Positions 56 through 62,611 of a stretch of DNA of 62,788 nt are shown here, piece by piece (within the stretch, counting starts at the first letter, position 1; each line of letters opens with the position of its first letter). This DNA comes from Candidatus Omnitrophota bacterium. Its GTDB lineage: Bacteria > Omnitrophota > Gorgyraeia > Gygaellales > Profunditerraquicolaceae. Under the pieces are notes generated by a model. That model had not been told where the DNA came from. It saw only the letters and a list, made by a program, of their open reading frames with translations, and made no database searches. A program made the translations under genes and the position numbers. The DNA lies in the NCBI GenBank assembly GCA_018825985.1, contig JAHKAP010000035.1, positions 1 through 62,788 of the forward strand. Reading direction: 5' to 3'.

Positions 56-3000
56 TTGATCGATTACAGGATAAGGCAGGAGAAGGCGTTGACAATCGTT
101 TTTATTGCCCAAGAGGCAACTAACCTCTATCTGGATGAAGAGCCATTCTTAAGCCAAATCTGGCAATATCAGGGGTTCTTGGCGGGTAGAAAAATTGCCT
201 TCTGGGGGTATAATTTTATCTCGCGAACCATCTTCGGCCAATACGCCGGAGATCCCCGGATCATCTTATTGATAACCAAGGGGCCCAAGGATGTTTTGGA
301 ATTGATAAGCGCAGGCGGGGACATCCTTTCGATTGTCTGCAAGGACGTCCCTCGATTGGTTGCAAGGATGTCCCCGAACGGGAGTTCGCCGATAAAAGAT
401 TCATTTTTGGATAATACGATTAAAAGATTCTTAGAGAAGCTCCTTTCCGCCGCGCCTTATCCCGCAAAACTGAAAGAGGCAGAGAAGATATACCCGGATA
501 CCTTTGATGCCCGGGAGTTGGTAGATGTCCTGGGTTTATTAAAAGAGACGATCATAGACGAGATTGTCGTAGGTTTAGGCGGTGTATCCCGGGTGTATCT
601 TGATAAAAAAATCAAAGAATACCTTTTTATAGCCATAGGAGTCCTGCGCTATAGGTTAATGGATGCAGCAAAAAGAGGCCCGATAGACCTGAGGCACTAC
701 CAGGAGATAATCAGGTTAATGCATTTCTTTACCGAAGATAAAAGGATAGCTATAGATATCGAGACCGTAAAACCCCAGGTCTCCACAGCTTACCATAGAT
801 TAGCAAACCAGTATTTTATTACCGGAGATTTATCTCAGGCAGAGGAATACTACCGCCGGGCCCAGTACTTTAGCCCGGAAAAGGCGATGTCGAATCTTGT
901 CCGAGGGAACAGGTTCTTCCGCCAGGCAAAGTTTAAAGAGGCCTCCTGGGAGTATGTCCGGGCAAAAAACCTCGGAGTTATTTCTCCGGAGCTGCGTAAA
1001 ATAATGCGCAGTAATTTAGGTTATACCTTTGAGATGCTCGGAGAGAACTCTTTTGCGGTAGAAGAATATAGGAATGCTTTGGGTTTAGACCCGGAAAATT
1101 ACCCTCTGGGCTTAGGGATAGGCCTATCTCTTATAAGGCTGGGTCTTTATCCGGAGGTATTGGAAGATTTCAGCCGAAAGGGGCTCTTGGAGGCGGAGAA
1201 CTTTGCCGGCCTTCTTAATATGCCTGATTCGCTAACGTACTTGGAGATGGCGGACAAGACAATTCAGTTTTGTTCGGATAAGAAACTTCTCCCGGATAAG
1301 TTTTTAGCCGAATTAGAGGATTTGGTTGAGGCGCTGAGTATTGTGTCCAGGCAGGAATTCGAGGGCCTTTCCAGCAGCCCTATAAAATTAGCTGATGCCT
1401 TTGTCACTAAGTTGCCGTTATTATTTACTCCTGAAGGGGCAAACGACTTCAGGAAGATAAAAAAAGCCCTCGGCAACAATTCTTTTAACGTTTTGTTTGG
1501 CCCGGCTTTCGGAGCGGATGTTTTGCTGTCCTTGTACCTTTTTGACCCCAGCATTATCTTAGCCGTGGATATGTTGGCTTTTGGCGAGTCTAAAGAATTA
1601 GGCAAATCCGCTTTATCAGGTATTAGGGATGAATATATTAAAGAGAAGAGGTGTCCCGGAGGATTCTCTTGGACGAGTACTTTGAGTAGAAAGATAAAAG
1701 TATTAGGGATTCCTATTTTATTAGAGCTGGAACTTTTAGGCCTTAAGAGAAAAGATATAAACCTAGCGATTAAAGGCAGGAATACTGCCGAGATTACATT
1801 TGTTTTGCCTAAGAATATCGACTCCGCAGGCAGGTTAAGGAAGGTCGTTTTCTTCGGCGGACTGGATGTTAATGATTTAGGTTCTTATCCCAAAACCCTT
1901 AAGTTGCTTATGAATAGGATTGATGCGTGTATGTATAAGGCTTTTTCGCCTTTCTATATAGAGGCAAAGACTTGGGATTTCATACTTTCCGGGTTCCGTA
2001 AAAGCGGGGTGATAGTTTCAGACAGGGGAATATTCCTAACCAGGAAGGGGAGAAAAAGAGTGTCGCATACTTACCACACGGAGATCAGCTTTGGGCATAA
2101 TCATTTTTATTCCTGGGGTAGAGGTGGCACATTTATTTACGAAGTGAAAGCTAAGACCTCTAGCTCTCCGGTCGGAGCCTTAATGCGCACTTATTCAGAG
2201 TCAACCCACAAACAATCCAGCAGCCCTATCGGTTCATATGACAAAGAAAAGATATTCTTGGATCCTTTATCTGTTGGCTTCCCAGACGAGAAATTCCTTG
2301 TTAATGGAAATTTATTTGATTTTTCCAGACGTCTTATCCTTCACCTGAATTTTTATAATCATAATTCAGGAAATTTGGGAGGTATTGAATTACTCTTACC
2401 CGGACACCTTATTAATTATATCTATGTGGAGCCGAAAGTTAGAGGCCAGGGACTGGCGAGAGCCTTCTTAATTACCCTATTTAAGATTATTGAGGATGGG
2501 TGGATAGAAGAAAATCTAAAAATGGGCATGTTTAATATGTATGTGCGGCATCCCTTACTAGCAAAAACGTTGTTAAGGCTCGGCTATGGCCATACTCCCG
2601 TGATAGGGGCAGAGGGTTTTAGCACGGAATTGATTTTAGGCAAGACGCTGGAGAATAAGAAAGTTCCGGTATATATACCCGATCCGGTAAAGAGAAAAGA
2701 TTTCATTATTTATGTCTCTGCAGCCGGAGAAGACTATAACATGCTTTTTATAGAGGATAAGCTTATTCGGGGAGATGCGGTAAGGATATATGAAACATAC
2801 TATCTTAAAGACGAGGATACATTCCGCAAACAAGTTGACAATTCTAGCATTAGAATAAAGGAAACTGTTTCCAAATCAATCGGGACAGTGGGTAATGGCG
2901 CCAGCTCGGCGGTGAGCCCGGGAGGCTCATATTATGCCGAACTATTTAAAACATTCGTGCGTACTCATCAGTGGACAGATATCATAGAATTAAGGCGGCA

Positions 3001-15000: not shown

Positions 15001-18000
15001 CCCTATCCGGGAGAACACCTCTGATAGTAATAATTCATCTTCGCCGATACCTGAGAATAACTTTATAAATACGGAAAAGGTTGGTGAGAAATTAAATCAA
15101 TATCAGTTTGACCATCATTTTGAGATGCTACAGCGGTGGATGCATATGTATCCGGTTATCTGCGGAGACAGCGTGCACACTATCTGTAAGTTTTTATCCG
15201 AGACATTTCATCACGATTTCTCAACCAAAGAGGAAAATTCTTTTCCTTATCTGGAATTCGCTTTTGTGGTCTTTACCGGAGACTTTGCAGCGCGCCGCTT
15301 ATGGGATATTGTCAGAAGCATGGTTTACGCCGGAAATGATAAGGACTTGAGGTTACATCTTTGTTTGAAAATTTACTTTTCCGAAACCAACAGCTACCTT
15401 ATTGACGGAGCAGCTAATGTATATGATAAAACCTATGATCGCAAAATAGCCTTTTTGCCTTATGAACAAGCGTTGAATGAACTAGGTTATAAAGAAAAGG
15501 GGCTCTTTTCCGACCCTCTTAAATTACTGCAATTTCTAAAGATAGTATCTGTTTCCAGCCCAGTAACATTCCCGACAGCGAAAGGGACTAAATTTCATAA
15601 TATTATCGAGCCAGGGAGAAAAGGATTCTGGCAGGCTCAAGACCCGGTTAAACTTGTATGCGCGGACTGCGTTGGTACGGTATTCTTTACCCGGGAAAGA
15701 AATATCTATCTGGCCCTGACAGACCCCCAGGCGTATAAACAGGATATATTGAATCAGTGGGAAGGATACGGATGTTTTGATGCCAGTAGAATTTTTGACA
15801 AGAATACCAAGGCGCTTATTTCTCATGTAATGAGAAGGAGTATACCCGCAGTATCGCTTAAGGCGTACCTTATTTCCCAGGGTTTAATTGAACAAAATAT
15901 ACAAATTGACCCCGCGCCTGAGGGTATAAACGAATTTGTCGAGAATATGATTTTATATGTCTGGCCGGATAAGGCCTTGAAAGTCGCTTATGATATTCCC
16001 AGGATTTTCAGGAGTCCGTATATCGTTGTTAACCGTTATTGGCTGGATTTCGGTTTTACCCTGTTACGTATTTCTTCCAGCCCCATCACGGAAACTGTTT
16101 CCAAGTCAATCGGGACAGTGGGTAATGGGGCCAGCTCGCCGATTGCTACGAGAGTGATAAAGCCGGGGGTACCAGTAGGCACATCGGTATATAGAATTAC
16201 TAAGCCTGAACAATTGCGCCAGTTTATCGGAGAAGGCGTGGCCAAAGTAAAAGAATACTGGGATCATGCAGTGGCCTATAAAATAACGGGGAATAGAGAG
16301 AGATTAAGCGCGTATGCATTTATATACACCTATATAAGAGGCGTTAAGGTTAATGGCCTTTACCAGTCTGTAGGAGGGACGCGGCATAAAAGATATCCGA
16401 ACGAGGTGGATGCGATTATAGACGGGCTGGAACTTTCTAGAGATATGACATATAAGAATGCTTTGGCCGGCATTCCTTTAGGTGGAGCAAAGGCAGTTCT
16501 TATGAATAAAGATAAGGAAATCTTAAAGATTTTTGCTTTGACACTTGAGGCTTTAGGAGTAATGCTCACGGGCCAGGATGTAGGCATATCTGAGGAAGAT
16601 GTGAATTATATGGCTGGATTCGGACCGCATGTAATTTGCGGCACGCCGGACAGAGCCTTGGGTGGCGAACCCACTGCTCCTTATACCTCTCTGGGGCTTT
16701 ACCACGCCACAATTGAAATGATTAAAGTGGCACATGAAAGAAGAATTCTAAGTTTTCATTCGCCAAACTTAAAAGATTATGGGTTTGGCTTACAGGGGTT
16801 AGGCGCGGTGGGAAGCAGGGTTTTGGAACATTTACTTAACGCCGGGGCAAGGGTGTATGCGACAGATGAGAAATCATTTGTTATGGCTAGTATTGCTAGA
16901 GAGCACTGCGAGGCTATATCAAGCGGCCAGTTAATATTAGTGAGGCCGCAGGAAATTTATAAAGTTAAAGGCGCGCAGATTTTTTTACCATGCGCCTTAG
17001 GCGGGGTATTAAATAATGTGACCATTCCATGGCTTTCTGATGCAGGTTGCAAAATGATTATTAGCGGGGCGAACAATGATTTAGATAAACCGGAAGAATA
17101 TTACAGCCACCTTATTCTTGAGAAAGGCATGATTCATATGCCGGGTTTTGGCGCTAATTCGGGAGGGGTATTAGCTGCCTTATGTAAAGTGGGAGGATAT
17201 GATTTAATAGAGAAGGTTACCCAAGGGATCCCCGCCAGGGTAAGACAGATTGTAGAGATATCCCTTGATGAACGCAGGCCTTCCTATGTGGTTGCAAAGG
17301 AGATTGCTAAAAAAATCGTGCGGCATTCAAAGATAGATTGGCAAGCCAGAGAGCAAGCCGCCTCGCCGGTAACCAGATATTCCGCAGATGAAGCGGTTAA
17401 GCGATGGATATATTTATGGCAAGAGATTAAATCCGGCCAAAAATTAGGTTTTAAATGTAAAGATATGCCTTTATGTTTAAATATAGCATTAAACATTATT
17501 AAGCCCCTTGATAGCTCAGAGCCACAACAATCAATACGACTTACTGTTGTAGATCTTGGGCATAAGCGAAATAAAGTTCAGGCCTGGCTTACTTATCACT
17601 ATGATAAGCAGATTCGTCTTTTAACACTGGCGGAAATTAAAGGAAGTCGTAGGGTAAAAGGATTAGGGGCGGTATTGGTATTAGAAGCTATAAGCCGTCA
17701 TCGGGAAGCTGAACAGGTTGTATTCAGCCGCCCTAAGAAAAAAGGCCGGATATTAATTAAGAAGCTGGAATATGTTGGCATCATCTGTAGCGTAGAGACA
17801 ATTGTTCAGCAGGGGAGGCTTTGGAGAATCTTGGGTTCGCATTTTGCAGATAATAAAAGAGCATACATCATTTGGGTCCGCCTAACTAACCTTACCACTG
17901 CTACATCTTTTGTTTCCAGCTCACCGGCCGCCTCGCCGGTGGAGAACGAAAATGTAGAGTATCTTTCAGTAGAAAGTAAAATAATGGAGGGGCGCCAGGA

Positions 18001-21000
18001 TATAATAGATGCTTTATCTAAAGGGAAACAGCCTCCTTTATTTGAAGTACAGTTTCATCCAAGCGCTATTTGCAATAATAGATGTCTTGGGTGTATCGGA
18101 ACAGCCATTAACGCTATCATTAAAAGCGATGGACGTAACTGCAATGCCCTATTGCTTTCCAGGGAACAGTTTTCTAAGGCTTTCGCAGATATAAGAGAAT
18201 ATAATGCTTATATAACGAGGATTCCCGGACAGCGTCCTGTCGAGCGCCTGATATTTTCCGGACTTACCGGAGAGCCAACCTGTAACAGATATGCTATTGA
18301 TGCGTTGAGAGAAGCCGCCGAATTAGGATTTCATAATACCTTATTAACAAATGGAAGGCTTCTAAATAATGATCGAAAGAAGGAAATCGTAATTACTTCT
18401 GTTAATGATATCATTGTTAGTTTATATGGAGCTACGGCTAAGGCCTATGGATTTGTCGCAGGGGTAGATGAAAGTGCCTTTAGGCCGCTTATAGAAAATA
18501 TAAGAGGATTGGTTCAAATAAGGAATATTAGAAAGCTTGGCAGCAAAATAGGAATCGCGTTTTTAATTGAGCGCGGAAATTATAAAGGAGTCATAGCCGC
18601 TACAAAGATAGCCTATGAATTAGGAGTAGATTTTATAAGATTTAGGGCTATTATGCAGGCTAATGAAAGGATGTTAGCCCCGGAACAGTGGAAGGAGTGC
18701 GAAGAAGGCCTGTCTTTCGCTAGAGAAAAGTATGAAACTGATAGCTTTAAGGTTATGGTTACCTCTGATGATAAGAAAACTTCGCCTAATGCGGAGAAAA
18801 GCTGCTTAAACTGCGTTGCTTGCCAAATCATGCCAGTGATAGGGCCTGATTTCAAGGTTTACCCTTGCCCTCACTTAAGTTATTTCGGCGCGGAAGATTA
18901 TGGTTCTCTCGAAAATTCTTCATTAATTGAGATATTGACGGGAGAACGAAGCAAACGGTTGATTGAAAGGATTGTTTCTAACCCAACTGATATTGTTTGT
19001 TCGCCAAGAAGGAGCAGGATAAATGAGCTTTTTAAGACAATAAAAAGCGGTTCCTCCAGCTCACCGGTGGGTTCGACTTTTGGTTCTCGGTTTCTGGTTC
19101 TCACAAGCACCGAGCACCGAGCACCGAGCACCGAAGGCGCCGCCTCGCCGTTTGGCCAGCTATCAGCTATTATCCGTCAGCTATCGGCTAAATATAGCTC
19201 CAATAGTTTACCGGCTCAGCCAACCGGATCCGGTTTATTTGCGGAAATATTTTTGCACCGGCCCAATGATAAAAGCTCTGAATTTGAAGGTAAATATTTT
19301 TTGATCCATACGAATGATTTACCATTCTTCAGGAACGAAGTTAGAAACTTGCCTGTAGTGGAAGGTATTGTTACTCACTTATCTGTGGGTATTGGCAGAG
19401 CCCGGAAGAACGGCCTTAAGTACGCAGGCGTCGCTATTCCAGCCCCGGGGACTAAATACGGCTTTGTTATAAAAGGCAATAGATGCGCCTCCAGCTCGCC
19501 GGCCGCTTTGCCGCTGGCGCACCGTGCACAGTTCTATCATAAATCATCTTCCGCTATAGAGTTAGACAGAAACGATCTAAGTAGTAGGCTGCAGGCTCAG
19601 GCTGTCTCCCGCCTTGAGGGCGGGTTTAAACAGAACAATTGGTATGCCATAAAGTTTAATTCCAGCGAAAAGCTGATTATTGATAAGGCCCAGTCCAGAG
19701 TAGAAAAGTTGTTAAGTCCTTATTATAGAAAACAGCTGGTTCGATGGAGGCCCGTTGATCCTCATGAATGGGGGCTTATTTTTATTACTCCTATAACAGC
19801 GTGGTTTTCGCCTTTTGTTTATCTTACCTATAAAGGTAGATTCAAGAGCGATCTTGATAACCAGGATCATTTTATACGGATTAGAATAGGCATGAGCGAG
19901 CAGGATCTTTTCCGCGTAACGGCTCATGAAAAAATACATAGCTTGATCCATTCGGGGGCGTTAGAAATAGATGAAGACAAGGAGATGGTATTGGCGGAAG
20001 CCATTGCCCTTATCGCTTTATTCCAGGAATATGGGATTATAGAACCGGATTATTTTAATTTAAGCGGAACTCCTCCCATGATCGTGGCCGCCATAAAAGA
20101 AGGGGAGTTCTTGGTAAACAATGGGGAGTTTAGTATTATCGAAATACGACAGAGAGCAGCGTTGCGTGAAGAGTATTATTATAAGGCAAGTTATTGTTTT
20201 ATTGCAAGGATGGTGGGGCGACTGACCCATGTAACGTTTAATTCAGAACCCTACTTGACCTATATTTATCAACGTATGCTCACCGGAGCCGTCCTAAAGG
20301 CGATAAGGACTAAAACACAGGAAGGTAATGTGTATCAGGAAGCTGTGTCTTTACTGATAAGTATGAGTACCGGTCTTCAGGATTTTTTTGAATCGGATTA
20401 TTCCATTCGCCGCAAACTGTCGGCCCAAAGAAGTTCAGGTGTTGATTTTAAGTTTTCTGTTTCTGCGGATGCGGACCCGCAGGGTCAAGAGCCCGGACAG
20501 ACAGTTTCCTCTTCGCCGGTAATTATTAAGGAACAGACCCAGTGTCCCGAACAACTCGGAAACAGTTTCCCCTTTGGGGCGGTTGTGGGGATGTTGTTAA
20601 GGGTGGCTCATTCCTCTTCGCCGGTTAATGATATTAACCAGGAGAGCTTGTACAATACCGTCAATTTAATATTGGAGTTAGGGGAACCAAAGAATTATCC
20701 GCTGGCATTAGTATTATTAGATGAGCTTTTTAAATATGATCCCCAGGATATAAGAATAAAGGATATTTATCTTGATCTTGCCGGCCATAAAAGAGGATAT
20801 GTTGAAAATGCCATTGATAAACTTGAAGAAATTATCAATACCCCGGATTTCTTTTCTCCGGTAGCCCATTATATACGGGCTATACTGAATTTTGATAAAG
20901 GCAATTTTAAAGAGTGCATAGCTGATTTGGATGAAGCGGTTCGGCTGTCCAAGGGTGTAGAAAATCGGACCAGGTATATTTTTGAGAAAATCCGCTATCT

Positions 21001-27895: not shown

Positions 27896-28717
27896 ATGAC
27901 AAAAGTTGTAAAAATCCAGGATATAAAAGTCGGAGGCGGCAATCCTTTTGTGTTGATCGCCGGGCCTTGTGTTATTGAATCTGAGTCCGGTGTTTTGGAT
28001 ACCGCAAAAAAGATCAAGGATATTACAGCTAAACTAGGCATACCATTTATTTTTAAATCCAGTTATGATAAAGCCAATCGGATGTCCATTGATTCTTATC
28101 GCGGACCGGGATTTAAAAAGGGCCTGGATATTCTGTATAAGGTAAGACAAAAGATCAAGGTTCCGATTTTAAGCGATGTGCATTGCCGGGAAGAAGTCAT
28201 TGCGGCTAAGTGCGTTTTAGATGTGATACAAATACCGGCTTTATTATGCCGGCAGACAGACCTGGTGTTAGCAGCAGCTAAGAGCGGGAAGGCAGTTAAT
28301 ATTAAAAAAGGCCAGTTTGTCGCTCCTTGGGATATTCAACCGATGATCCGCAAAGCCGAATCAACGGGAAATAAGTCAATTTTGATTACCGAAAGAGGGT
28401 TTTCATTCGGTTATAATAATCTGGTTTCCGACCTACGTTCTCTTTCGATAATGCGGGGGTTTGGCTATCCGGTGATCTATGACGCTACCCACAGTATTCA
28501 GTTACCCGCAGGCAAAGGAACATCATCAGGCGGTCAGAAAGAATTTGTTTCCGGGTTATCCCGGGCAGCAGTTGCTTTTGGCTGTGATGGTTTATTTCTG
28601 GAAGTGCATGTTTCCCCGGATAAGGCTCTTTGCGACGGGCCGAATATGATCGACCTGAAAGAGCTGGAGAATTTGTTAAAGCAGGTAAAAAGCATAGAAA
28701 AAGCATTAAGCAATTAG
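27896..28717 (+). CDS. kdsA: 2-dehydro-3-deoxyphosphooctonate aldolase (Kdo8P synthase)
   Basis: FVLIAGPCVIES, FKSSYDKANR and VIYDATHS. Confidence 0.9.
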   Translation: MTKVVKIQDIKVGGGNPFVLIAGPCVIESESGVLDTAKKIKDITAKLGIPFIFKSSYDKANRMSIDSYRGPGFKKGLDILYKVRQKIKVPILSDVHCREEVIAAKCVLDVIQIPALLCRQTDLVLAAAKSGKAVNIKKGQFVAPWDIQPMIRKAESTGNKSILITERGFSFGYNNLVSDLRSLSIMRGFGYPVIYDATHSIQLPAGKGTSSGGQKEFVSGLSRAAVAFGCDGLFLEVHVSPDKALCDGPNMIDLKELENLLKQVKSIEKALSN

Positions 28718-28750
28718 GAAACTGTTTCCGATTTGTTCGGGACAGTGGGG
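28717..28750 (+). repeat. same repeat, copy 4, in the kdsA-kdsD spacer
   Basis: ggaaactgtttccgatttgttcgggacagtgggg begins at the last base of the kdsA stop codon (TAG 28715-28717). Confidence 0.85.
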
Positions 28751-28773
28751 TTTGTTTCAGCAGCGAGCGAATA

Positions 28774-29742
28774 ATGAAAATCAATACTATAAAAAGAGCT
28801 AAAGAAGTCTTGGATATTGAGATTGAGGCGATCAGAATTTTAAAGTCCCGGCTGGGAAATGATTTTACAAAAGCTTTGGAGATGATGTTTAAGGCCAAAG
28901 GAAGGATCGTGGTAAGCGGGATGGGTAAGACCGGTATTATCGCCCAGAAACTCTCTGCTACCCTGGCTTCGACAGGCACGCCAAGTTTATTCCTGCATAC
29001 AACTGAAGCGGTTCACGGTGATTTAGGCAGGGTAACCAGCGAAGATGTGGTTATAATAATTTCTAACAGCGGCTCAAGCGAAGAGTTAAAGCAATTAATG
29101 CCGCTTTTAAAAAAGATAGGCTCGAAAGTAATCGCTCTTACCGGAAATCTTAAATCCGTTTTGTCTAAATATAGCGACGCAGTCCTGGATGTTTCAGTAA
29201 AAAAAGAAGCCTGTCCTTTAGGCCTGGCTCCTACAGCTTCTACTACCGCGGCTTTAGCTATGGCGGATGCTTTAGCAGTCTGCCTTTTGGAATTAAAAGG
29301 TTTTGAAGAGAAAGATTTTGCTTTTTTCCATCCGGGCGGGGCTTTAGGCAAACGCCTGCTTTTAAAGGTAAGCGATATTATGCGCTCGGGGAAAGCCAGC
29401 CCTGTGGTTGATGCGGGTATGTTAGTCTCCCGGGTCCTGCTTAAGATTACTCAGGCTAGGGCAGGCTCAGCTACGATAGTGGATAAAAAAGGAAGTCTCG
29501 TTGGCATTTTTACCGACGGAGACCTGCGCCGGCACCTGGAGGCGGATGCAAACCTCTCTAAGCGTAGAATAAGCGAGGTAATGACTAAGAATCCGCTAGT
29601 CATAACCGCTGACAGGCTGGCTGCCGAAGGCATGCGTATCCTGGAAGAAAAAAAGATTGACGAAATCCCAGTTGTGGATAAGAATAATAAGCCTGTAGGC
29701 CTGCTGGATATCCAGGACCTGTTAAGGGCTGGTCTGGTTTAA
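28774..29742 (+). CDS. kdsD: arabinose-5-phosphate isomerase (KpsF/GutQ family; SIS + tandem CBS)
   Basis: VVSGMGKTGIIAQKLSATLASTGTPS (SIS) and C-terminal CBS pairs. I place the start at ATG 28774 (MKINTIK), because the longer ORF from 28630 overlaps kdsA and the repeat. Confidence 0.85.
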   Translation: MKINTIKRAKEVLDIEIEAIRILKSRLGNDFTKALEMMFKAKGRIVVSGMGKTGIIAQKLSATLASTGTPSLFLHTTEAVHGDLGRVTSEDVVIIISNSGSSEELKQLMPLLKKIGSKVIALTGNLKSVLSKYSDAVLDVSVKKEACPLGLAPTASTTAALAMADALAVCLLELKGFEEKDFAFFHPGGALGKRLLLKVSDIMRSGKASPVVDAGMLVSRVLLKITQARAGSATIVDKKGSLVGIFTDGDLRRHLEADANLSKRRISEVMTKNPLVITADRLAAEGMRILEEKKIDEIPVVDKNNKPVGLLDIQDLLRAGLV

Positions 29743-33492: not shown

Positions 33493-33500
33493 TTTTAATG

Positions 33501-33552
33501 GGGACAGCGACTATTTTTTCTATAATCTCTAATAAAAAATAGTCGCTGTCCC
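33501..33552. repeat. perfect 19-bp palindromic element GGGACAGCGACTATTTTTT / AAAAAATAGTCGCTGTCCC (terminator-like)
   Basis: Arms at 33501-33519 and 33534-33552 with a 14-nt loop, in the clpP-aminotransferase spacer. A near-identical element lies at 43050-43100. Confidence 0.85.
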
Positions 33553-33573
33553 TAATAACCGAAAGGAAGTAAA

Positions 33574-34799: not shown

Positions 34800-36386
34800 A
34801 TGTTTAAAATTTTAGTTAGCGATTCTTTATCCGAGGAAGGCCTAAAAATATTAAAGGGAAATAAAGATTTTCAGGTTGATGTCAAAATCGGGATGAAGCC
34901 CGAAGAACTAAAGGCTGTAGTCGGGGATTACGATGCTCTTTTAGTCAGGAGCGCCACCAAGGTAACTAAAGATATTATTGCCGCGGCCAACAAGCTTAAG
35001 GTAATCGGCAGGGCTGGAGTAGGGCTGGATAACGTGGACCTTCCGGCAGCAACCGAAAGAGGCATAGTGGTAATGAATACTCCGGCGGGAAATACCATTT
35101 CTACTTGTGAGCAGACTTTGAGCCTTATTTTATCTTTGGCCCGCAGTATCCCTTTGGCAAATTCTACTACCAAGGCAGGGGAATGGAGACGTTCCAAATT
35201 CATGGGAGTGGAACTTTACCAGAAGACTTTAGGCGTAGTCGGCCTGGGCAAGATCGGTTCAGAAGTGGCTAAACGGGCGATCTCTTTCGGGATGAAGGTT
35301 TTGGCATATGATCCTTATTTATCCCGTGAAGCAGCCCAACACATGGGGATCGAAGCAGTAGAATTAAATGAATTACTTAAAACAGCGGATTTTATTACGG
35401 TTCATGTTCCATTAACCGAAGATACCAAATATCTGATCTCAGACGAGGAATTTACTCTGATGAAGAAGACTTGCCGGGTGATTAATTGCGCCCGGGGAGG
35501 GATAATCGAGGAAAAGGCGTTGATTAACGCGCTTAAAGAAGGCAAGATAGCCGGAGCGGCTTTAGACGTATTTGAAAAAGAACCTCCGGATCCGAATTCG
35601 GAATTATTAAAGATGGATAATGTAGTGGTCAGCTGTCATTTAGGGGCTTCGACCGAAGAGGCCCAGGTGAATGTGGCTATTGAGGTGGCTGAATGCGTAC
35701 GGGATTTTCTATCCGGCAAAGGAATTCGCAATGCCGCCAATTACCCGAATATCGAACCGGAGCTATACAAGATCCTTCAGCCGTATATAATTATGGCCGA
35801 GAAACTGGGGGATTTTTCCGGCCAGATAATTGAGGGGAGGATTAATGAGATTAGCATTCAGTATAGCGGTGATATCACCAAGTATAATACCGCTTCTCTG
35901 ACCATGGCCCTGGTCAAGGGGCTTTTAAAACCGGTATTAAAAGATACGGTCAATTTTATTAATGCCATTCCGATCGCCAAAACCAGGGGTATTCAGATCA
36001 AGGAGACCAAGACCCTGGTGGAAGAAGATTTTGTTAACCTGATCTCGCTTAAAATAACCACTGATAAAGAGACCCGCAAGTTTGCGGCTTCGCTTTCTCC
36101 GAAGAGAGAGCCTAGGATCGTCAAGATAGATGATTTTTATGTTGAGGCTGCTCCGTCAGGATACCTGTTGACGATGAAGAATTGGGATAAACCGGGGATC
36201 ATTGGGAGTATCGGAACGCTTTTAGGAAAACATAACATTAATATCGCGGCAATGACTTTTGGCAGAAAGATTGAAGGCGGGGAGGCGGTAAGTTTATTGA
36301 ATGTGGACTCACCAATCTCTCCTGAACTTATGGAGAAGATCAAAAAGCTGGATAATATATTGGCTGTAAAGGTTATAAAGCTATAA
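34800..36386 (+). CDS. serA: D-3-phosphoglycerate dehydrogenase (with ASB/ACT regulatory region)
   Basis: GVVGLGKIGSEVAKRA (NAD Rossmann), INCARGG and a C-terminal ACT-like domain. ATG 34800 lies 6 nt after AAGGAGG; ATG 34794 abuts the RBS. Confidence 0.85.
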   Translation: MFKILVSDSLSEEGLKILKGNKDFQVDVKIGMKPEELKAVVGDYDALLVRSATKVTKDIIAAANKLKVIGRAGVGLDNVDLPAATERGIVVMNTPAGNTISTCEQTLSLILSLARSIPLANSTTKAGEWRRSKFMGVELYQKTLGVVGLGKIGSEVAKRAISFGMKVLAYDPYLSREAAQHMGIEAVELNELLKTADFITVHVPLTEDTKYLISDEEFTLMKKTCRVINCARGGIIEEKALINALKEGKIAGAALDVFEKEPPDPNSELLKMDNVVVSCHLGASTEEAQVNVAIEVAECVRDFLSGKGIRNAANYPNIEPELYKILQPYIIMAEKLGDFSGQIIEGRINEISIQYSGDITKYNTASLTMALVKGLLKPVLKDTVNFINAIPIAKTRGIQIKETKTLVEEDFVNLISLKITTDKETRKFAASLSPKREPRIVKIDDFYVEAAPSGYLLTMKNWDKPGIIGSIGTLLGKHNINIAAMTFGRKIEGGEAVSLLNVDSPISPELMEKIKKLDNILAVKVIKL

Positions 36387-38146
36387 TGTGTAAATTCGCC
36401 ATCTATCATCCATTATCCATTGTCCGATTTGGGTTTATTTTCTTATTAATGTTTTGCCTATTGAATTTTAATAGTTATGCCGAGGAGATTACCATACTTT
36501 ACACCGGCGAGACCCATGCCATGCTTTATCCTTGTAACTGCCCGATTGAATCCGACGGAGGAGTAGCCCGTAGGGCCGGCCTGATCAAGGAATTAAGGGC
36601 AAAAAACGCCAATATTTTAGTTTTGGATTCAGGCGGATTTTTTGCCGGTGGATTAGCCGATGAATATACCCAGAATACGGACCTGGACAAGAAAAGAACA
36701 TTAGTAAATCTTAAAGCCCTGGAATTAATGAAATATGACGTTTTGAATTTAGGGGATAATGAATTTAATTTTGGCAGGGAATTTCTGCAACAGGCTATAA
36801 AAGACGTAAAAGTAAATTTTGTCTGTGGCAATGTAAAATTAGATAACGTTTTACCTTATATAATAAAAGAGTTGGCTGGCGTAAAGATCGGGATAATCGG
36901 AGTGGCTCCTGTTTCAATGGCCCCTAAAACCGGCGGACTGGATATTCAGGAGCCCATTTCTAAAGTAAGACAGATAGCGGAGGAACTTAGGTCCAAATCA
37001 GTTGATATTATTATTCTTTTAAGCCAATTAGGCGAAGATGAAGATACTCGGTTGGTCAAAGAAGTTCCGGGGATTGATGTGGTTATGATCGGACATAGGC
37101 GCCTGAAAGAAGCTATTTTTGGCAAGGTAAATTCAACTTTAATGTTAAGGCCGGCCTGGCAAGGCCGCAGATTAGGCAAAGCAGTTTTAAATATAAAAGA
37201 TAAAAAAATTTCCGGCTATAAGATAGATGAATTACGTTTGTCAGATAAAATAATTGATGATGAAACTATAGGATCGGTGCTTCCCCGTTGTTTTTCCGAG
37301 GCTAACTGTAAAAAAGAAAAAATGATCCCGACCTGCCAGAATCCCGGGGAGATCAGCTCTCAGTGCGTGTTTACCGAAGCTAATAAAGTCCGGCTTGCGG
37401 TAATCAACCCTAAATCCTGCATGGTTTGTGATATTCAGCCGGTAATAAATTACTTTAAAAAGAAAATCTCCGGGCTGGAAGTTACTGAGGTCCCTTACCC
37501 GGGCAAGGAAGCGGATAAACTGATCAAGGAATTTAGTATTACCGGTTTACCGGCTTATTTTTTAGGCAAGGAGGCAGAGAAAGAGAGGGAATTTGAAGGC
37601 CTGAAGAATAACTTAGAATTAAAAGGCGATCTTTATTGGGTCAGGCCTCAATTGACCGGGATGTCGTATTTCTTAAATCGTGAATTAATTAAGGGCAAGC
37701 TGGATTTATTTTTTAGTTTGTTTGATAAGGATAGTCCCGCGCTTCTGGAATCGTTAAAAGAGTTTGATCTATCGCCGCATTTTCTGGCTGTGGAGAGGGA
37801 AGGTAAATTTGACGCCCCTAAAGGCGCCTTAGAAGTTGAAGAATATTTACGCAGCGCTTGCGTTCAGAAATATTACCCTCAAGCCTTCTGGGATTATGTA
37901 AGCTGCCGGGCGAAAAAAAGCGATACTTCTTGGTGGGATGATTGCGCAGCGGGTAAATTCGATACGCTTAAGATCAAGGCCTGCGCCCAATCCGAAGAGG
38001 GAAAAGACCTATTAAGGCAAAATATTAGCCTGAACAAAGAACTGATGGTCATGTTCGGGCCCACGTATCTGTTAAATAACAGAGAGATTTTTAGTTCCAA
38101 GGGGGCTCCCTCTAAAGAGGAGCTCAGAAAGATAATAAAAAGGTAG
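36386..38146 (+). CDS. secreted metallophosphoesterase/5'-nucleotidase-like protein with Cys-containing C-terminal domain
   Basis: N-terminal signal-like FIFLLMFCLLNFNSYA, then ILYTGETHAMLYPCNCP and VLDSGGFF..., GDNEFNF. The function is not resolved by eye. Confidence 0.45.
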   Translation: MCKFAIYHPLSIVRFGFIFLLMFCLLNFNSYAEEITILYTGETHAMLYPCNCPIESDGGVARRAGLIKELRAKNANILVLDSGGFFAGGLADEYTQNTDLDKKRTLVNLKALELMKYDVLNLGDNEFNFGREFLQQAIKDVKVNFVCGNVKLDNVLPYIIKELAGVKIGIIGVAPVSMAPKTGGLDIQEPISKVRQIAEELRSKSVDIIILLSQLGEDEDTRLVKEVPGIDVVMIGHRRLKEAIFGKVNSTLMLRPAWQGRRLGKAVLNIKDKKISGYKIDELRLSDKIIDDETIGSVLPRCFSEANCKKEKMIPTCQNPGEISSQCVFTEANKVRLAVINPKSCMVCDIQPVINYFKKKISGLEVTEVPYPGKEADKLIKEFSITGLPAYFLGKEAEKEREFEGLKNNLELKGDLYWVRPQLTGMSYFLNRELIKGKLDLFFSLFDKDSPALLESLKEFDLSPHFLAVEREGKFDAPKGALEVEEYLRSACVQKYYPQAFWDYVSCRAKKSDTSWWDDCAAGKFDTLKIKACAQSEEGKDLLRQNISLNKELMVMFGPTYLLNNREIFSSKGAPSKEELRKIIKR

Positions 38147-42002: not shown

Positions 42003-43043
42003 ATGGCTCTGACAAAAATACGAAAAATTAAAAATAGGCTCTCCAGGATAGTCCCCAAAAAGAAAAAAACCGCGGTATCGGCAAGGCGCAAAGTTTTAGG
42101 CGCTAAGCGTAAAGGCGCTGTTTCTAAAAATGATAATGTTGGTATTTCTCCTAAGGATATGCTGGGTATCCAGCAGATAGAGATAGAAAAGGCAAAATTT
42201 TCTTTTATCCAGGCAAAACAATTGCCCAAGCCAATGCCTCATGACCTTCCCGGAGGATATAATAAAGACGAGATTATCTTGCAGATCCGCGACCCTTGGT
42301 GGTTGTATTCATATTGGGAAGTTACCTTAAATACCTGGGCCAAATTAAAGCAGCATCTTAAGGATGTTTTTCAAACGGCCAAAAAGACCCTCAGGGTTTA
42401 TGATGTCAGCCAGATTATTTTCAACGGTAAGAACGCGCACAAGTTTTTCGATATCGAGACCAACCATGACGCTAATGCCTGGTATATTGACGCTGCCGGG
42501 CCGGGAAAGTCCTGGTGCGTGGATTACGGTTTAAAGCTTCCCAATGGAGAATTTATAACCATAGTTCGTTCCAATACTGTCCAATCTCCGCTGGACGGGC
42601 CGTCCTGGATCACTGATGAAGAGTGGATGATCCCCGAAGAGATCTTCGGAAGGCTCTATGGTATGGGTATTGGATTGGGGCAGAGTTCGCCTGGAAAGGG
42701 TTGGCAGGAGAGGATGAAAAAGGCTTTGTTCTCCGGGATCCTGGCTTCTCCGGGAATGGCCTCAATGGCCAGCCCGGTTAAAAAGGCCCCCAAGTTGAGG
42801 AAATTCTGGTTAGTAGTAGATTGCGAATTGATCGTCTACGGGGCCACTGAACCGGACGCTTTAGTTACGGTTCAGGGGAAACCGATAAAATTAAGGCCGG
42901 ATGGAACTTTTACTCTGCGCTACGCCCTGCCTGATGGAAAGCAAGTAATCCCGGTCAAGGCTGTTGCCAGCGATGAATTGGAAGAGAGGACTATCACTCC
43001 GATAGTATCCCGGGAAACAAAGTCCAGCCAGGTATTGAAATAA
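42003..43043 (+). CDS. DUF4912-like protein (commonly paired with GH57 branching enzyme)
   Basis: DPWWLYSYWEV motif. Its position directly upstream of a GH57 gene matches the usual pairing. RBS GGAAGGAGG. Confidence 0.55.
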   Translation: MALTKIRKIKNRLSRIVPKKKKTAVSARRKVLGAKRKGAVSKNDNVGISPKDMLGIQQIEIEKAKFSFIQAKQLPKPMPHDLPGGYNKDEIILQIRDPWWLYSYWEVTLNTWAKLKQHLKDVFQTAKKTLRVYDVSQIIFNGKNAHKFFDIETNHDANAWYIDAAGPGKSWCVDYGLKLPNGEFITIVRSNTVQSPLDGPSWITDEEWMIPEEIFGRLYGMGIGLGQSSPGKGWQERMKKALFSGILASPGMASMASPVKKAPKLRKFWLVVDCELIVYGATEPDALVTVQGKPIKLRPDGTFTLRYALPDGKQVIPVKAVASDELEERTITPIVSRETKSSQVLK

Positions 43044-43049
43044 TAAATA

Positions 43050-43100
43050 GGGACAGCGACTATTTTTCTAATAGATTATTGAAAAAATAGTCGCTGTCCC
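43050..43100. repeat. palindromic element GGGACAGCGACTATTTTT / AAAAATAGTCGCTGTCCC, second copy
   Basis: Arms at 43050-43067 and 43083-43100, in the DUF4912-GH57 spacer. Confidence 0.85.
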
Positions 43101-43123
43101 TAATAAAAAAAAGAAAGATAGAC

Positions 43124-46280: not shown

Positions 46281-46282
46281 AG

Positions 46283-46353
46283 AAATGGGGTCAGAATTAT
46301 TTTTCTACCTCTTGTATCCCAGAAAAATAATTCTGACCCCATTTCTGACCCCA
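46283..46353. repeat. ~70-nt palindromic element AAATGGGGTCAGAATTATTTTT-loop-AAAAATAATTCTGACCCCATTT (copy upstream of dxr)
   Basis: Arms at 46283-46304 and 46323-46344, with an extra partial arm ctgacccca at 46345-46353. Confidence 0.9.
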
Positions 46354-47542: not shown

Positions 47543-47616
47543 AAATGGGGTCAGAAATGGGGTCAGAATTATTTTTCTACCTCTTGTATCCCAAAAAAAT
47601 AATTCTGACCCCATTT
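47543..47616. repeat. second copy of the AAATGGGGTCAGAATTATTTTT palindromic element (downstream of dxr)
   Basis: Partial arm at 47543-47554, full arms at 47555-47576 and about 47594-47616. The loop ctacctcttgtatccca is the same as in the upstream copy. Confidence 0.9.
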
Positions 47617-47633
47617 ATTATAGAAAGGAAAAT

Positions 47634-58224: not shown

Positions 58225-60591
58225 ATGGTAACCAATCCAAAAGAAAACTATAGATATTGTGCTTTTACAGGTTCACTTTGTAATAAATTATTGCCTAATG
58301 AGAATGATTTAAAGGTATTCTTTGCCTACCCGTCAGTACCTAAAATTAATGGCTATATGAATGATATTTGTAATCATGTAGAGTTAAAAGGGATGGATCT
58401 TTTTCCTTGGATAAACTTAAGTGATTCAGGGGGGATCATCTTTTGTAAAATATGCTCTCACATATTAGAATCACACGCTATTGTTGCAGACATTACATAT
58501 ATAAACCAAAATGTACTTTTTGAACTTGGATTTGGTATAGCAAATGGAAAAATACCAATACTCATAAAAGAAGAAAGCAGAAGTGGTAATGTTATTGATA
58601 TTTTGAAAGATATAAAACGTATCGATTATTCTGATATCGACGCTTTGGCTGGAAAATTATATGGAGCTTTTTTTTCAGAATTCACCTTTTCTGATTTATC
58701 CGATACTTCTGATAATCCCCAAGTTTTCTTTATAAATGCAGATGCGAACATGCCTATTAAAAGACCTATATATAAATATTTGGAAGAAAATTGTCGAGAT
58801 TTTCTATTTAATATACAAATTGATGATTCTTCTGAAATCTCGAGCCATAAATTAATCCATCTATTAAAAACTATTAATAAGAGTGAATTGATTGTATGTC
58901 ACATGGTAGGAATTGATTATAAAGGATATGATGAAATAAATGCCCAAGTAGCTTTTCTAGCTGGCTATGCTTTGGGGAAACAGAAAAAGATTATAATACT
59001 TCAGGAGTATCCATCTGATAAGATGCTTGATTTGCAACAGGTAAGGCGTGTGTATAGAGATAAAAAAGAAGCTCTCCAACTTCTAGAAAATTGGTTGAGA
59101 CCGATTAAGGACGCGAAATTAAAGATTTTAGAAAATGAAAAGAAAAACAAAGAACAAGCTGTTCTTAAGGAACAATTATCTTTAGCTTTGGGTCATCCTG
59201 CTGCGGAATATGACTCCAATTTAGATGATTCTTTTATTGAAACAAATGATTTCTTAGAAGCGAGGAGATTTAGGAAAGATTTGTTTATTGGTCGTAGGGG
59301 TACCGGGAAAACAGCTAATTTTCTCCAACTCAGTAAAGATTTTAAGAGACATCCTCGGAATATTGTGGTTGAAATAGTACCTTCTAAATTACAATTAATT
59401 AGTACTATCGACTATTTGTATAGTAGGGCAGGAAATGAACGCGTTACTGCACTTTTCGAGATGTTTTGGCAGTATTTAATTCTTACGGAGATTGCTATTC
59501 AATGTCAGAGATATGAAGTAACTAATAATTTTATGGTGGATCCTGGATCATTTCATGATGTAGTAACGCTTCTGGAAGAGTATGTTGATACGCATACGGA
59601 ATTTGACATTCGGTTTAATGATATAATTAATAGATTTTGCGATGTAGTCATGCAATCTAAAACAAATGACCTTAGAGCTATCATTCTACAAAATTTTTAT
59701 AAAGAGTATTTTCCAAAAATGCAGAAAGCTGTTTTAAAAATTAGCAATCATCATCCTATAGTAGTTTTAATTGATAATTTGGACAAAGATTGGGACAAAA
59801 AAAATATATCAAGCATTTCCGCTTTAGTTAATTCGCTTTTTGATATTATGAATAGAATTAACGTTAATAGTTCATTTGGAGATTGTAAGGTAGTATGCTT
59901 TCTAAGGACGGATATTTATCAAATATCATCAAAATATGATTCTGACTTTGATAAAAGACAACCTCAGGCATTAAAGTGGGATAAAGAATTGCTGAAGGCA
60001 GTTATTTGTGAACGTATAGCTTCTGCTAAAGGAATAGTTGGCGGCAATTATGATGATTTGTGGAGGGCTGTATTCGGAAATAATGTCGGGTCTATTGTAA
60101 ATGTGTTTGATTATATTATGGAAAAGACGATGCTAAGACCAAGGGATATTTTAACATTTTGTACCTATATTTTAGATAATATGATGAAAAAGGAAAAGAC
60201 TGTCGTAGATGAACAAATTATTCTTGAATCGGAGAAGCTTTATTCCGATTATTTATTGAGAAGTATAAGGCAAGAGTATATGATTGGATATCCTGACATT
60301 GATGATATATGTGCGGAGATATTTTTTGGAAGAAATACATTTTTTACTGAAAGTCAATTAAGAGAGAGAGTAGCAAATTATGCAGTTTCAAGATCAGAAT
60401 ATGGAATTGATGACATTATCGCATTTTGTTTTAAAAGCGGCATGTTAGGTATTGAAATTAATAATGTTATGCATTTTGAATATGAGGGCAAAGACTATAA
60501 TTTACTTATAAGTCAAGCACGTAAAAATCCTAAAGATTTTAATTTTATTGTCCATCCCGGACTTCGTGAGGTTTTAGAAACTAAATCATAA
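58225..60591 (+). CDS. tandem TIR-like/nucleoside-2-deoxyribosyltransferase-like domains fused to a P-loop NTPase (defence-type protein)
   Basis: aa 28-115: VFFAYP ... VADITYINQNVLFELGFGIANGKIPILI (flavodoxin-fold TIR/NDT-like with a conserved Glu). aa 165-262: a second copy with FLAGYALGKQKKIIIL in which the Glu is lost. Walker A is GRRGTGKT (nt 59290-59313) and Walker B is VVLIDNLD (nt ~59761-59784). The gene is AT-rich. Confidence 0.65.
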   Translation: MVTNPKENYRYCAFTGSLCNKLLPNENDLKVFFAYPSVPKINGYMNDICNHVELKGMDLFPWINLSDSGGIIFCKICSHILESHAIVADITYINQNVLFELGFGIANGKIPILIKEESRSGNVIDILKDIKRIDYSDIDALAGKLYGAFFSEFTFSDLSDTSDNPQVFFINADANMPIKRPIYKYLEENCRDFLFNIQIDDSSEISSHKLIHLLKTINKSELIVCHMVGIDYKGYDEINAQVAFLAGYALGKQKKIIILQEYPSDKMLDLQQVRRVYRDKKEALQLLENWLRPIKDAKLKILENEKKNKEQAVLKEQLSLALGHPAAEYDSNLDDSFIETNDFLEARRFRKDLFIGRRGTGKTANFLQLSKDFKRHPRNIVVEIVPSKLQLISTIDYLYSRAGNERVTALFEMFWQYLILTEIAIQCQRYEVTNNFMVDPGSFHDVVTLLEEYVDTHTEFDIRFNDIINRFCDVVMQSKTNDLRAIILQNFYKEYFPKMQKAVLKISNHHPIVVLIDNLDKDWDKKNISSISALVNSLFDIMNRINVNSSFGDCKVVCFLRTDIYQISSKYDSDFDKRQPQALKWDKELLKAVICERIASAKGIVGGNYDDLWRAVFGNNVGSIVNVFDYIMEKTMLRPRDILTFCTYILDNMMKKEKTVVDEQIILESEKLYSDYLLRSIRQEYMIGYPDIDDICAEIFFGRNTFFTESQLRERVANYAVSRSEYGIDDIIAFCFKSGMLGIEINNVMHFEYEGKDYNLLISQARKNPKDFNFIVHPGLREVLETKS

Positions 60592-60640
60592 AACTAGGGG
60601 ACGGTTCTGTTTATTTGGTAATTCTGAGACTGAATAATTA

Positions 60641-60659
60641 GGGACAGCGACTATTTTTT
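60641..60659. repeat. solo left arm of the GGGACAGCGACTATTTTTT palindromic element
   Basis: Identical 19-mer to 33501-33519, but no matching right arm follows. Confidence 0.7.
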
Positions 60660-60674
60660 AAACTATAGTAAATA

Positions 60675-60708
60675 GGGACACCCCGTAATTCAATCGGCAG
60701 GGTGTCCC
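60675..60708. repeat. hairpin repeat AATAGGGACACCC-N16-GGGTGTCCC
   Basis: Arms at 60675-60683 and 60700-60708. A homologous element lies at 62575-62608. Confidence 0.75.
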
Positions 60709-60777
60709 CTAAACTCGGGGAAGGGCGGTGGCGAGGCGGCGGTTGAGAAGAATAGAAGTATACTGAGTGATAGAAAA

Positions 60778-60812
60778 GTTTGTTAGATTTACGCAATTAA
60801 AGCGTCTATTAG
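60778..60812 (+). repeat. island junction element, copy A (contains GTTAGAT)
   Basis: gtttgttagatttacgcaattaaagcgtctattag is preceded by the GC-rich gggcggtggcgaggcggcggttgag (60723-60747). Confidence 0.6.
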
Positions 60813-60910
60813 TAGTAGAAAGTAAGTGGTCGCAGATTGCAACCAGTTTATAGGGTATAAATCTTTAAAAAGACATAATTATGTGGCATACTTTAAATAG
60901 GAAAAAGATA

Positions 60911-61760: not shown

Positions 61761-61794
61761 GGAAACTGTTTCCGAGTTGTTCGGGACAGTGGGG
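61761..61794 (+). repeat. same repeat, copy 5, in the accessory island spacer
   Basis: ggaaactgtttccgagttgttcgggacagtgggg followed by the GC-rich cggggcggcggtgggtg. Confidence 0.85.
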
Positions 61795-61811
61795 CGGGGC
61801 GGCGGTGGGTG

Positions 61812-61860: not shown

Positions 61861-61873
61861 ATAGAGAATGAAG

Positions 61874-62608: not shown

Positions 62609-62611
62609 CAG

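Follow-up and report, generated by a model that had tools for sequence, protein, structure and literature searches.

The window analysed here is a stretch of 62,788 nucleotides (nt) from Candidatus Omnitrophota bacterium (assembly GCA_018825985.1, contig JAHKAP010000035.1, forward strand). It opens with a giant open reading frame (ORF) that spans positions 56-21763 of the plus strand and encodes 7235 amino acids (aa) from the first start codon, continues through a series of housekeeping genes and leads into a small accessory region. As the giant frame is open from base 2, the gene probably extends upstream of the window, and its product would then exceed 7235 aa. Distributed over the window are five copies of a 33-nt palindromic repeat, three of them hosted by the giant ORF and two located between genes. 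This repeat, which probably is a unit of a family of selfish repetitive extragenic palindromes (REPs) linked to a REP-associated tyrosine transposase (RAYT), is the subject of the present analysis.

The copies were located with the 13-mer palindrome GGAAACTGTTTCC, allowing at most one mismatch and comparing the window with shuffled sequence; 0.06 occurrences were expected and none of the shuffles reached five. All are solo, one-arm units of the form GGAAACTGTTTCC-N8-(T)CGGGACAGTGGG, in which the palindrome (module A) and the terminus (module B) enclose a variable octamer. Copy 1 (2860-2892, plus strand, N8 AAATCAAT, module B CGGGACAGTGGG) and copy 2 (16090-16122, plus strand, N8 AAGTCAAT) both read ETVSKSIGTVG in the giant ORF, and the latter is placed between the motifs SSSP (16073-16084) and ASSP (16130-16141), directly 5' of a Glu/Leu/Phe/Val-dehydrogenase module. 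The two are identical at 49 of 52 positions, comprising the 33-nt element and a 19-nt tail (2893-2911 in copy 1) that encodes NGASS(A/P), and their spacing of 13,230 nt corresponds to exactly 4,410 codons. Copy 3 (20538-20570, minus strand, N8 GAGTTGTT, module B GGGACACTGGG) is inverted within the same ORF, reads QCPEQLGNSFP and is flanked by two SSSP motifs (20507 and 20612). Copy 4 (28717-28749, plus strand, N8 GATTTGTT) lies within the 57-nt spacer between kdsA and kdsD, and copy 5 (61761-61793, plus strand, N8 GAGTTGTT), an exact match to the family consensus, is found between an NYN-domain gene and a BrnT/BrnA toxin-antitoxin pair. The initial annotation of this DNA had listed the same five positions and the same 49/52 identity, and its translations, ETVSKSIGTVGNGASS(A/P) for copies 1 and 2 and QCPEQLGNSFPF for the inverted copy, are correct.

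While 37.5 kb of ordinary genes contain no REP, two are found in about 3.6 kb of non-coding sequence and three in the giant ORF. Copies 4 and 5 differ at a single base. Copies 3 and 5 are identical at 32 of 33 positions in spite of being 41 kb apart, in inverted orientation, and one of them coding and the other non-coding. They have the octamer GAGTTGTT in common, which is rare elsewhere (2 of 129 units), and its presence in both argues for a putative recent event of intragenomic copying. The annotation had also considered that all coding copies might derive from a single internal duplication; the octamer of copy 3, however, matches that of the intergenic copy 5 and not those of copies 1 and 2. 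Four public assemblies of the same species are 99.8-99.97% identical to the window; as related assemblies we note GCA_018824565.1, GCA_043820065.1, GCA_043800815.1 and GCA_018827565.1. Copy 3 is base-identical in the three of these that cover its site and copy 4 in all four, and as both are unchanged they are not assembly artefacts. In the same strain-level comparison there were zero differences at the REPs, a result that is uninformative on mobility. GC-rich tracts had been described behind both spacer copies, and this holds for copy 5, which is followed by the G-rich ggggcggggcggcggtgggtg, but not for copy 4, where the sequence on the 3' side is gtttgtttcagcagcgagcgaata. The tract ggcgaggcggcgg that had been assigned to copy 4 is actually located at 60730-60742, after a different hairpin (approximately 60675-60710). 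With one tract misplaced, and with intergenic copies in other genomes that have no such tract, the idea that the tracts represent the antisense of linker DNA is not supported.

An exact scan for GGAAACTGTTTCC-N8-CGGGACA, carried out with one genome per species, yielded 56 loci, 53 of which reside in 12 metagenome-assembled genomes (MAGs) of Omnitrophota that contain 59 two-module copies. A scan for the tandem form (…N8-CGGGAAAC) added eight Omnitrophota MAGs, so that the family is present in at least 20, and the metagenome scan found the repeat on 53 further contigs. The genome scans produced just five matches in other phyla, which we regard as chance. The initial annotation had named absence of the element elsewhere in the genome as grounds for giving up its reading; this test does not refute it, the element being abundant elsewhere. 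Throughout the family, the 13-nt palindrome GGAAAC(T/A)GTTTCC of module A combines with the variable N8 and CG into a 23-nt unit, and one to three such units are followed by module B, CGGGACAGTGGG, or by the palindrome GGGACA(G/C)TGTCCC as the terminus. Complete elements continue with a loop of 15-35 nt and an inverted arm B' CCCACTTTCCCG-(N8-A)n, form long hairpins and reach a length of 100-170 nt. The complete element at locus L003 (loci fetched from other genomes and contigs carry numbers of this kind) folds at -63.9 kcal/mol, with z = -10.6, and inverted doublets or hairpins are also present in L015, L018, L034, L036 and L038. Tandem 23-nt units and long inverted hairpins between genes are the usual form in relatives.

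Modules A and B are constant, whereas the hypervariable octamer (consensus RWNYYRWT) takes at least 40 forms among 129 units. Within an array N8 is mostly uniform and between arrays it differs, a pattern that points to local slippage combined with recognition of the constant palindromes. About three quarters of the copies in other genomes are extragenic, in both orientations and between tandem, convergent and divergent genes alike, and the nucleotides of the repeat remain unchanged across genomes whose kdsA proteins are just 70-75% identical or thereabouts. Other classes of repeat were considered and set aside. For a CRISPR array, the period of 23 nt is at odds with the assignment, and the segments of 8-10 nt between the palindromes are identical within an array rather than unique spacers. 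A DNA-uptake sequence was dropped, since the window has only one copy in about 12.6 kb, and known operators (LexA CTGT-N8-ACAG, parS, sigma-54 and ECF promoters) misfit in spacing and half-site order, as judged informally.

A motif screen over all ORFs of the fetched loci located a transposase in direct contact with the repeat. The 160-aa ORF in L080/L164 matches the Pfam family Y1_Tnp (IS200-like, PF01797) with E = 4e-11, and its sole match in the PDB, a distant one (E = 0.004), is the E. coli transposase TnpA-REP (4ER8). In the L164 protein, an HUH motif (MPNHIHII) and a tyrosine motif (YVEQNP) both align with the matching regions of the E. coli enzyme. On the 5' side of the gene, (A-N8)x3-GGGAAAGTGG stops just ahead of the ribosome-binding site, and on the 3' side GGGACAGTTTCCC-(N8-A)x3 begins directly past the stop codon. 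The same flanking is present at ten more orthologous loci (L165-L168, L171, L301-L304 and L306), a total of 11 related loci, whose RAYT genes encode 144-161 aa with identities to L080 from 87% downwards; remoter orthologues are flanked by variant palindromes of a like style. Directly upstream, a comM/yifB-like Mg-chelatase gene is found in L164-L168, L171, L302-L304 and L306, as is typical of a transposase that occupies a single syntenic locus and is inherited vertically. In the protein collection the RAYT family comprises 426 clusters, mainly labelled as Omnitrophota transposases, and one member was named 'REP element-mobilizing transposase RayT' by its source.

The L080-type locus is the defining REP/RAYT ('REPtron') arrangement (PMC3333891, PMC6006769). 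We assign a probability of about 0.8 to the reading that the 33-nt repeat is a unit of the REP family in a REP/RAYT system conserved across a broad clade of Candidatus Omnitrophota. The initial annotation had suspected a small, REP-like mobile element and had suggested a search for a RAYT or IS200-like transposase. The suspicion is borne out by the occurrence in at least 20 Omnitrophota MAGs, the flanking of a RAYT at 11 loci and the absence of the kdsA-kdsD spacer from most relatives; such a search did yield a RAYT in relatives, and none in the window or the same-species assemblies. Beside this system, a second, different RAYT was noted in L064 (MAG JAQTTI01; approximately 2340-2400 and 2895-2935), flanked by the hairpin GGGACGGTTCTC, and the window contains a half-copy of that hairpin, TAGGGGACGGTTCTG at 60594-60608, just past the stop codon of a 788-aa ORF. 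Several REP/RAYT pairs may exist in Omnitrophota. An ORF between inverted units in L020 was examined as a candidate transposase and rejected, as it is a PHP-type housekeeping protein.

In the mechanism that we propose, the RAYT, a Y1/HUH enzyme encoded between two inverted repeat arrays, would bind and cut hairpins in single-stranded DNA and rejoin them elsewhere, and this would lead to the spread of non-autonomous copies; cleavage and rejoining are inferred from the homology to TnpA-REP (4ER8) and to the IS200/IS605 family (PMC3333891, PMC3479197). Arrays would expand through local slippage, and the five solo units of the window would rely on a RAYT gene in another part of the genome. The long inverted arms of the full elements, 100-170 nt in all, might be taken for the terminal inverted repeats of a miniature inverted-repeat transposable element that is derived from an insertion sequence with a DDE transposase and mobilised with target-site duplication. 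Yet no such duplication was visible on inspection of the ends of full elements (L003, L015, L018 and L038), the window is devoid of a DDE transposase, and the only transposase embedded in the repeat is of the Y1/HUH type, which makes no duplications, so that this origin is barely credible.

The likeness to the REP, BIME (bacterial interspersed mosaic element) and REPIN (REP doublet forming a hairpin) sequences of E. coli and Pseudomonas and their RAYTs (PMC3333891, PMC3479197, PMC3116915, PMC6006769) extends to several features. The palindromes are short, imperfect and mostly extragenic, inverted doublets give rise to hairpins (here in the relatives, while the window has solo arms only), a small Y1/HUH gene with its own repeat inverted on both sides occupies one conserved chromosomal locus, and transposase clade and repeat sequence co-vary. 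Unlike the REPtrons of E. coli and Pseudomonas, the present one is hosted by the phylum Omnitrophota, lacks a GT[AG]G head, has arms in which a perfect 13-nt palindrome forms the core of tandemly repeated 23-nt units, and includes copies that are translated in frame within giant ORFs. With IS200/IS605 elements it has in common the transposase superfamily PF01797, the recognition of imperfect hairpins and, as far as can be inferred, transposition without target duplication. It differs from them in that the RAYT gene does not appear to be multi-copy, is without a tnpB partner at the loci seen and holds a fixed syntenic position, and in that the repeats far outnumber the gene. Pneumococcal BOX and Neisseria Correia elements are likewise modular, with a repeated internal unit and terminal modules, intergenic and of hairpin potential, but unrelated in sequence. 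Neither family is known to have an associated Y1 transposase or to reside in frame in giant ORFs.

The clearest trace of an insertion in the window is the junction of kdsA (27896-28717, plus strand; DAHP_synth_1 family) and kdsD (28774-29742, plus strand; SIS and CBS domains). All relatives of kdsA belong to Omnitrophota, and among 78 Omnitrophota loci in which the two genes are neighbours they overlap or abut in 56, typically by ATGA, with gaps of at most 14 nt in 8 more. The 57-nt spacer of the window consists of the REP and 24 nt, an insert whose length is a multiple of three. As the genes overlap or abut in 56 of the 78 relatives, copy 4 is, judged by this comparison, a derived insertion. 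Its first G constitutes base 3 of the kdsA stop codon TAG, which is completed by the REP, and the ancestral in-frame kdsA stop TGA persists in the ATGA start of kdsD, as can be read directly. Side by side with this, readthrough across 28715-28777 would take the REP in the ETVS…GTVG frame and then reach TAA and the ancestral TGA of ATGA; a different dinucleotide ahead of copy 4 would have meant an insertion that lengthened kdsA in frame.

In the closest relative (kdsA 86% identical), 115 nt of related units with a 23-nt period are found at the same junction, and other lineages have unrelated hairpin repeats there. Several unrelated palindromic or tandem repeats invaded this junction independently (L084-L163; for example L088, L105, L111, L133, L146, L132 and L098). 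To judge from these sequences, it looks like a recurrent landing site. E. coli REPs have secondary cis-acting roles, and by analogy reduced expression of kdsA through a REP at its stop codon, loss of translational coupling between kdsA and kdsD and ribosome pausing at the linkers of the giant ORF are all plausible effects of the copies in the window.

Cis effects of this type may also be placed at the centre of the matter, with the repeat as a host signal, either an operator array or an RNA stem-loop for termination, stabilisation or processing, that is reused between cistrons and between the modules of the giant mRNA, and with the Y1 gene as an incidental neighbour. The 13-mer palindrome recurs every 23 nt, about two helical turns, the positions at gene boundaries include one within the kdsBADC operon right at a stop codon, multi-unit arrays fold strongly, and the secondary roles of E. 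coli REPs fit the same picture. However, the repeat occurs in either orientation and between tandem, convergent and divergent genes, its presence at one and the same junction differs among relatives, and neither N8 nor the number of units is conserved. An Rfam 15 scan of the entire window returned no match at the gathering score, and the solo units, the sole form in the window, fold at chance level, three of five being no better than shuffles as RNA and three to four of five as DNA in single-strand folding. The tight flanking of a transposase at 11 loci would moreover be unexpected for an operator. We consider a host signal of this kind very improbable as the primary nature of the repeat, and the RNA-level signal that the initial annotation had offered as an option was not sustained by the Rfam result, the folding and the orientations relative to genes.

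The three remaining copies direct attention to the giant ORF itself. According to Pfam it contains TPR, HAD, a small methyltransferase domain, a Glu/Leu/Phe/Val (ELFV) dehydrogenase and radical SAM, and its enzyme-sized modules are separated by linkers of the type [AS]SSP[VIA]. The tripeptide SSP occurs 27 times where 1.5 occurrences are expected, compared with 2 in the remaining 12,502 aa of the window. As the codons of the linker vary, the motif is at least partly a matter of the protein level, yet a position-specific preference for TCC-AGC-TCG-CCG exists. Around 29 motifs of the broader form [AS]SS[PA][VIA] were seen at intervals of 145-700 aa, for example at 1370, 2159, 5651, 8951, 12296, 12923, 16073 and 16130, and further at 19055, 20507 and 20612; comparable motifs in giant ORFs of other Omnitrophota are ASSAV, GSPV and AASPV. 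It is possible that [AS]SS[PA] serves as a signal for polyprotein processing or as a linker. The host ORF resembles the giant 'multi-enzyme' proteins described for Omnitrophota (10.1101/2023.11.21.568195; 10.64898/2026.06.07.730766), in which unrelated enzyme domains follow one another in one very long frame. The texts of both papers are without mention of linkers, polyprotein boundaries or palindromic repeats, and SSSP linkers and the REPs inside them appear undescribed there. Relatives of the giant ORF in the protein collection are stand-alone leucine dehydrogenases only, with 35-41% identity.

Among the same-species assemblies, a 7-nt deletion, AGCACCG (window positions 19106-19112), was noted in L245 (GCA_043820065.1, JBDREG010000018.1), which is otherwise 99.8% identical. 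The deletion divides the giant ORF into products of 6016 aa and 836 aa; it reflects either genuine variation in the population or a mistake in assembly. An in-frame deletion between copies 1 and 2 was not seen; the JBDREG01 ORF is as long as it should be if both copies are present. An invertible segment (shufflon) delimited by the pair at 16090 and 20570 was rejected, as there is no minus-strand ORF of at least 150 aa across 16-20.5 kb and inversion would break the frame.

Residence within giant ORFs is not confined to the window. Deep inside open frames of more than 1000 aa we find 14 of the 59 copies in other genomes (5 MAGs), with the remainder intergenic or at 5' edges, and the metagenome contigs contribute six further deep in-ORF copies. 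Together with the three of the window, at least 14 copies in giant ORFs elsewhere are in frame, translated and open through the element, and in at least six genomes the REPs of giant ORFs adjoin linkers of the [AS]SSP type. All three in-ORF copies of the window are situated within 6 aa of SS[PA]. For three random positions the probability of this is about 0.001, and it rises to about 0.01 when copies 1 and 2 are treated as one event. Two statements of the initial annotation are upheld here, that the in-ORF copies are found between or next to SSP linkers and that they are kept in frame in both orientations, and the latter extends to giant ORFs of other genomes.

The reading frame of these copies is almost always the same. 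All 19 sense copies in ORFs read ETVSxxxGTVG, their first G occupying codon position 3, the antisense copies L248 and L257 again have module A read as ETVS, and a GNSF reading of module A was found in copy 3 of the window and in L300. Counted as independent linker types, ETVS outnumbers GNSF by 9 to 2 (p = 0.0014 against an expectation of equal frames), where the independence of the 11 types was judged by eye. The consensus element, translated by hand, has no stop codon in any of six frames, and those frames in which it was actually seen within ORFs are all open. In one giant ORF of JACQXK01, the linker GASSAV-LKEPSFPNNL-ETVSKSIGTVG-KR-GASSAV contains an inside-out doublet B'-N8-A-N8-B and occurs eight times in near-identical form, and the linker in L300 is GSSP…HCPVQIGNSF…GSSP. 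A target-site duplication at the in-ORF copies was considered and not accepted, since the similarity of the flanking ASSAV or ASSP sequences amounts to 15/18 nt in JACQXK01 but to 8/15 in the window.

A conserved frame raises the question whether the peptide might come first, as a linker cassette ETVSxxIGTVG-x2-3-ASS[PA][VI] that spreads by recombination of giant genes and leaves intergenic copies as the debris of decayed or rearranged giant ORFs. The identical frame in at least six genomes would suit this explanation, as would the common NGASS-coding tail of copies 1 and 2, the eight near-identical composite linkers in a single JACQXK01 giant ORF and the fact that all in-ORF copies of the window adjoin SS[PA] motifs. 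It is, however, difficult to reconcile with some three quarters of the copies being extragenic and adjoining ordinary housekeeping genes, with tandem and inverted arrays that are not readable in a consistent frame, as 23 nt cannot be divided by three, and with a palindromy that is meaningless at the peptide level. Third codon positions are invariant even where kdsA is about 70-75% identical, while the neighbouring SSSP codons vary, and the repeat flanks the RAYT gene in inverted orientation. The REPtron arrangement largely refutes such a peptide cassette, and we regard it as improbable.

Under the REP/RAYT reading, insertions in ordinary genes would be purged, and those in the unconstrained [AS]SSP linkers between modules of giant ORFs would survive if their length preserves phase. 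The surviving frame would be the least disruptive one, ETVSxxxGTVG, a small, polar, Cys-free peptide. The fixed frame argues for selection acting, presumably, on what is tolerated, and the in-ORF copies are best taken for putative insertions, tolerated and filtered by frame, rather than for a linker of established function. Of the domesticated coding linker proposed by the initial annotation, the retention in frame stands, and the domestication, with a function acquired by the peptide or the hairpin, is a hypothesis. This behaviour is reminiscent of Rickettsia palindromic elements (RPEs; PMC10969869), which are also palindromic, found both between genes and in frame within genes, and translated as an extra peptide segment. 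RPEs, however, are some 100-150 bp in length, occur in Rickettsia alone and lack a known transposase (PMC10969869), whereas the unit described here is 33 nt long, has another consensus and Omnitrophota as its host, is tied to a RAYT and has its coding copies confined to the inter-module linkers of giant ORFs. The element is not a member of the RPE family.

Several observations weigh against a REP/RAYT system as the source of the copies in the window. Neither transposition nor cleavage activity was observed, nor was any in-ORF copy seen to be polymorphic for presence or absence. Neither a RAYT nor any other transposase is among the genes of the window, eight look-ups of RAYT homologues returned none in the four same-species assemblies, which are fragmented MAGs, and the cognate enzyme is seen solely in relatives with kdsA 70-75% identical. 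The 5' tetranucleotide GT[AG]G, canonical in enterobacterial and pseudomonad REPs, is missing, as the units start with GGAA, which follows CG or variable bases; REP classes 2.6 and 3 likewise lack it, so that the feature is not universal (PMC6006769). The solo units fold at -2.7 to -5.8 kcal/mol as DNA. Copies 1 and 2 probably represent an intragenic duplication or gene conversion rather than two transpositions, because the 19-nt tail (NGASS) common to both is not part of the REP. A search of the genome contigs gave no orthologue of the giant ORF, and the strict frame might alternatively reflect selection on the peptide itself.

REP/RAYT systems have been studied mostly in Gammaproteobacteria, and the present data extend them, with a distinct modular repeat, to Omnitrophota, an uncultivated nanobacterial phylum for which the literature searched held no paper that mentions RAYT or REPIN. 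The arrangement amounts to a canonical REPtron of modular architecture, with 23-nt units, in a phylum new to such systems, and it colonises giant-ORF linkers in a fixed frame. Palindromes regarded as 'extragenic' are translated here; the linkers of giant multi-enzyme ORFs are the sole setting, one frame is used almost without exception, and the in-frame REPs provide independent sequence evidence that the linkers are unconstrained spacers between autonomous modules. Information on module boundaries is stated to be lacking for giant genes (10.1101/2023.11.21.568195), and the REP-coded peptide and [AS]SSP could serve as boundary landmarks in structure prediction and in proteomic tests of cleavage. 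Identical repeats in phase, such as copies 1 and 2, moreover offer a mechanism for the gain or loss of modules.

A more far-reaching interpretation, which we hold to be unlikely, is that the giant ORF behaves like an operon without stop codons, with the [AS]SSP linkers as its 'intergenic' boundaries and probably as sites of polyprotein processing, and that the in-frame REPs are more than passengers. If true, it would account for the ability of selfish DNA of a strictly extragenic class to live in the linkers. The REPs could then have helped to build the giant gene by converting stop/start junctions into stop-free spacers, as has nearly happened between kdsA and kdsD. Alternatively or in addition, they could now act as homologous in-phase recombination sites to shuffle, delete or duplicate enzyme modules, and they could also be ribosome-pausing hairpins between them.

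The housekeeping genes of the window comprise PilZ, CheR, kdsB/A/D/C, lptC/A/B, tig, clpP, serA, purA, dxr, rseP, ispG, proS, rimP, nusA, infB, a class I tRNA synthetase of the Trp/Tyr type, scpA and ruvB. They are followed by the small accessory region with the NYN-domain gene and BrnT/BrnA. A scan of the window for tRNA and tmRNA genes found none, and Pfam yielded nothing at E <= 1e-5 for two sizeable ORFs, 58225-60591 (788 aa) and 36386-38146 (586 aa). A second repeat family with the stem TAGGGACAGCGACTATTTTT was noted at 33493-33558, 43042-43108 and 60633-60662, in the form of two complete hairpins of 25-26 bp just 3' of clpP and of the DUF4912 gene, with a half-copy 3' of the 788-aa ORF; these hairpins look like terminators or REPs and have the head GGGACAG in common with module B. 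Two 64-nt hairpins (GGGGTCAGAATTATTTTTCT…) that are 98% identical and in direct orientation stand on both sides of dxr (46281-46346 and 47553-47619).

Within the accessory region, an attC or integron interpretation of the repeated GTTAGATT boundary was rejected, as no inverse core site was seen. A composite boundary is present there three times (60675-60822, 61761-61870 and 62575-62669) and consists of a GGGAC-type hairpin or a REP, sometimes a G-rich tract, and finally some 45 nt of conserved sequence, …TTGAAAATnnTGAGTTAGATTyGG…CGTCTrTTAnnTAGAGA…. These composite boundaries bracket the NYN gene and the BrnT/BrnA pair in the manner of cassette borders.

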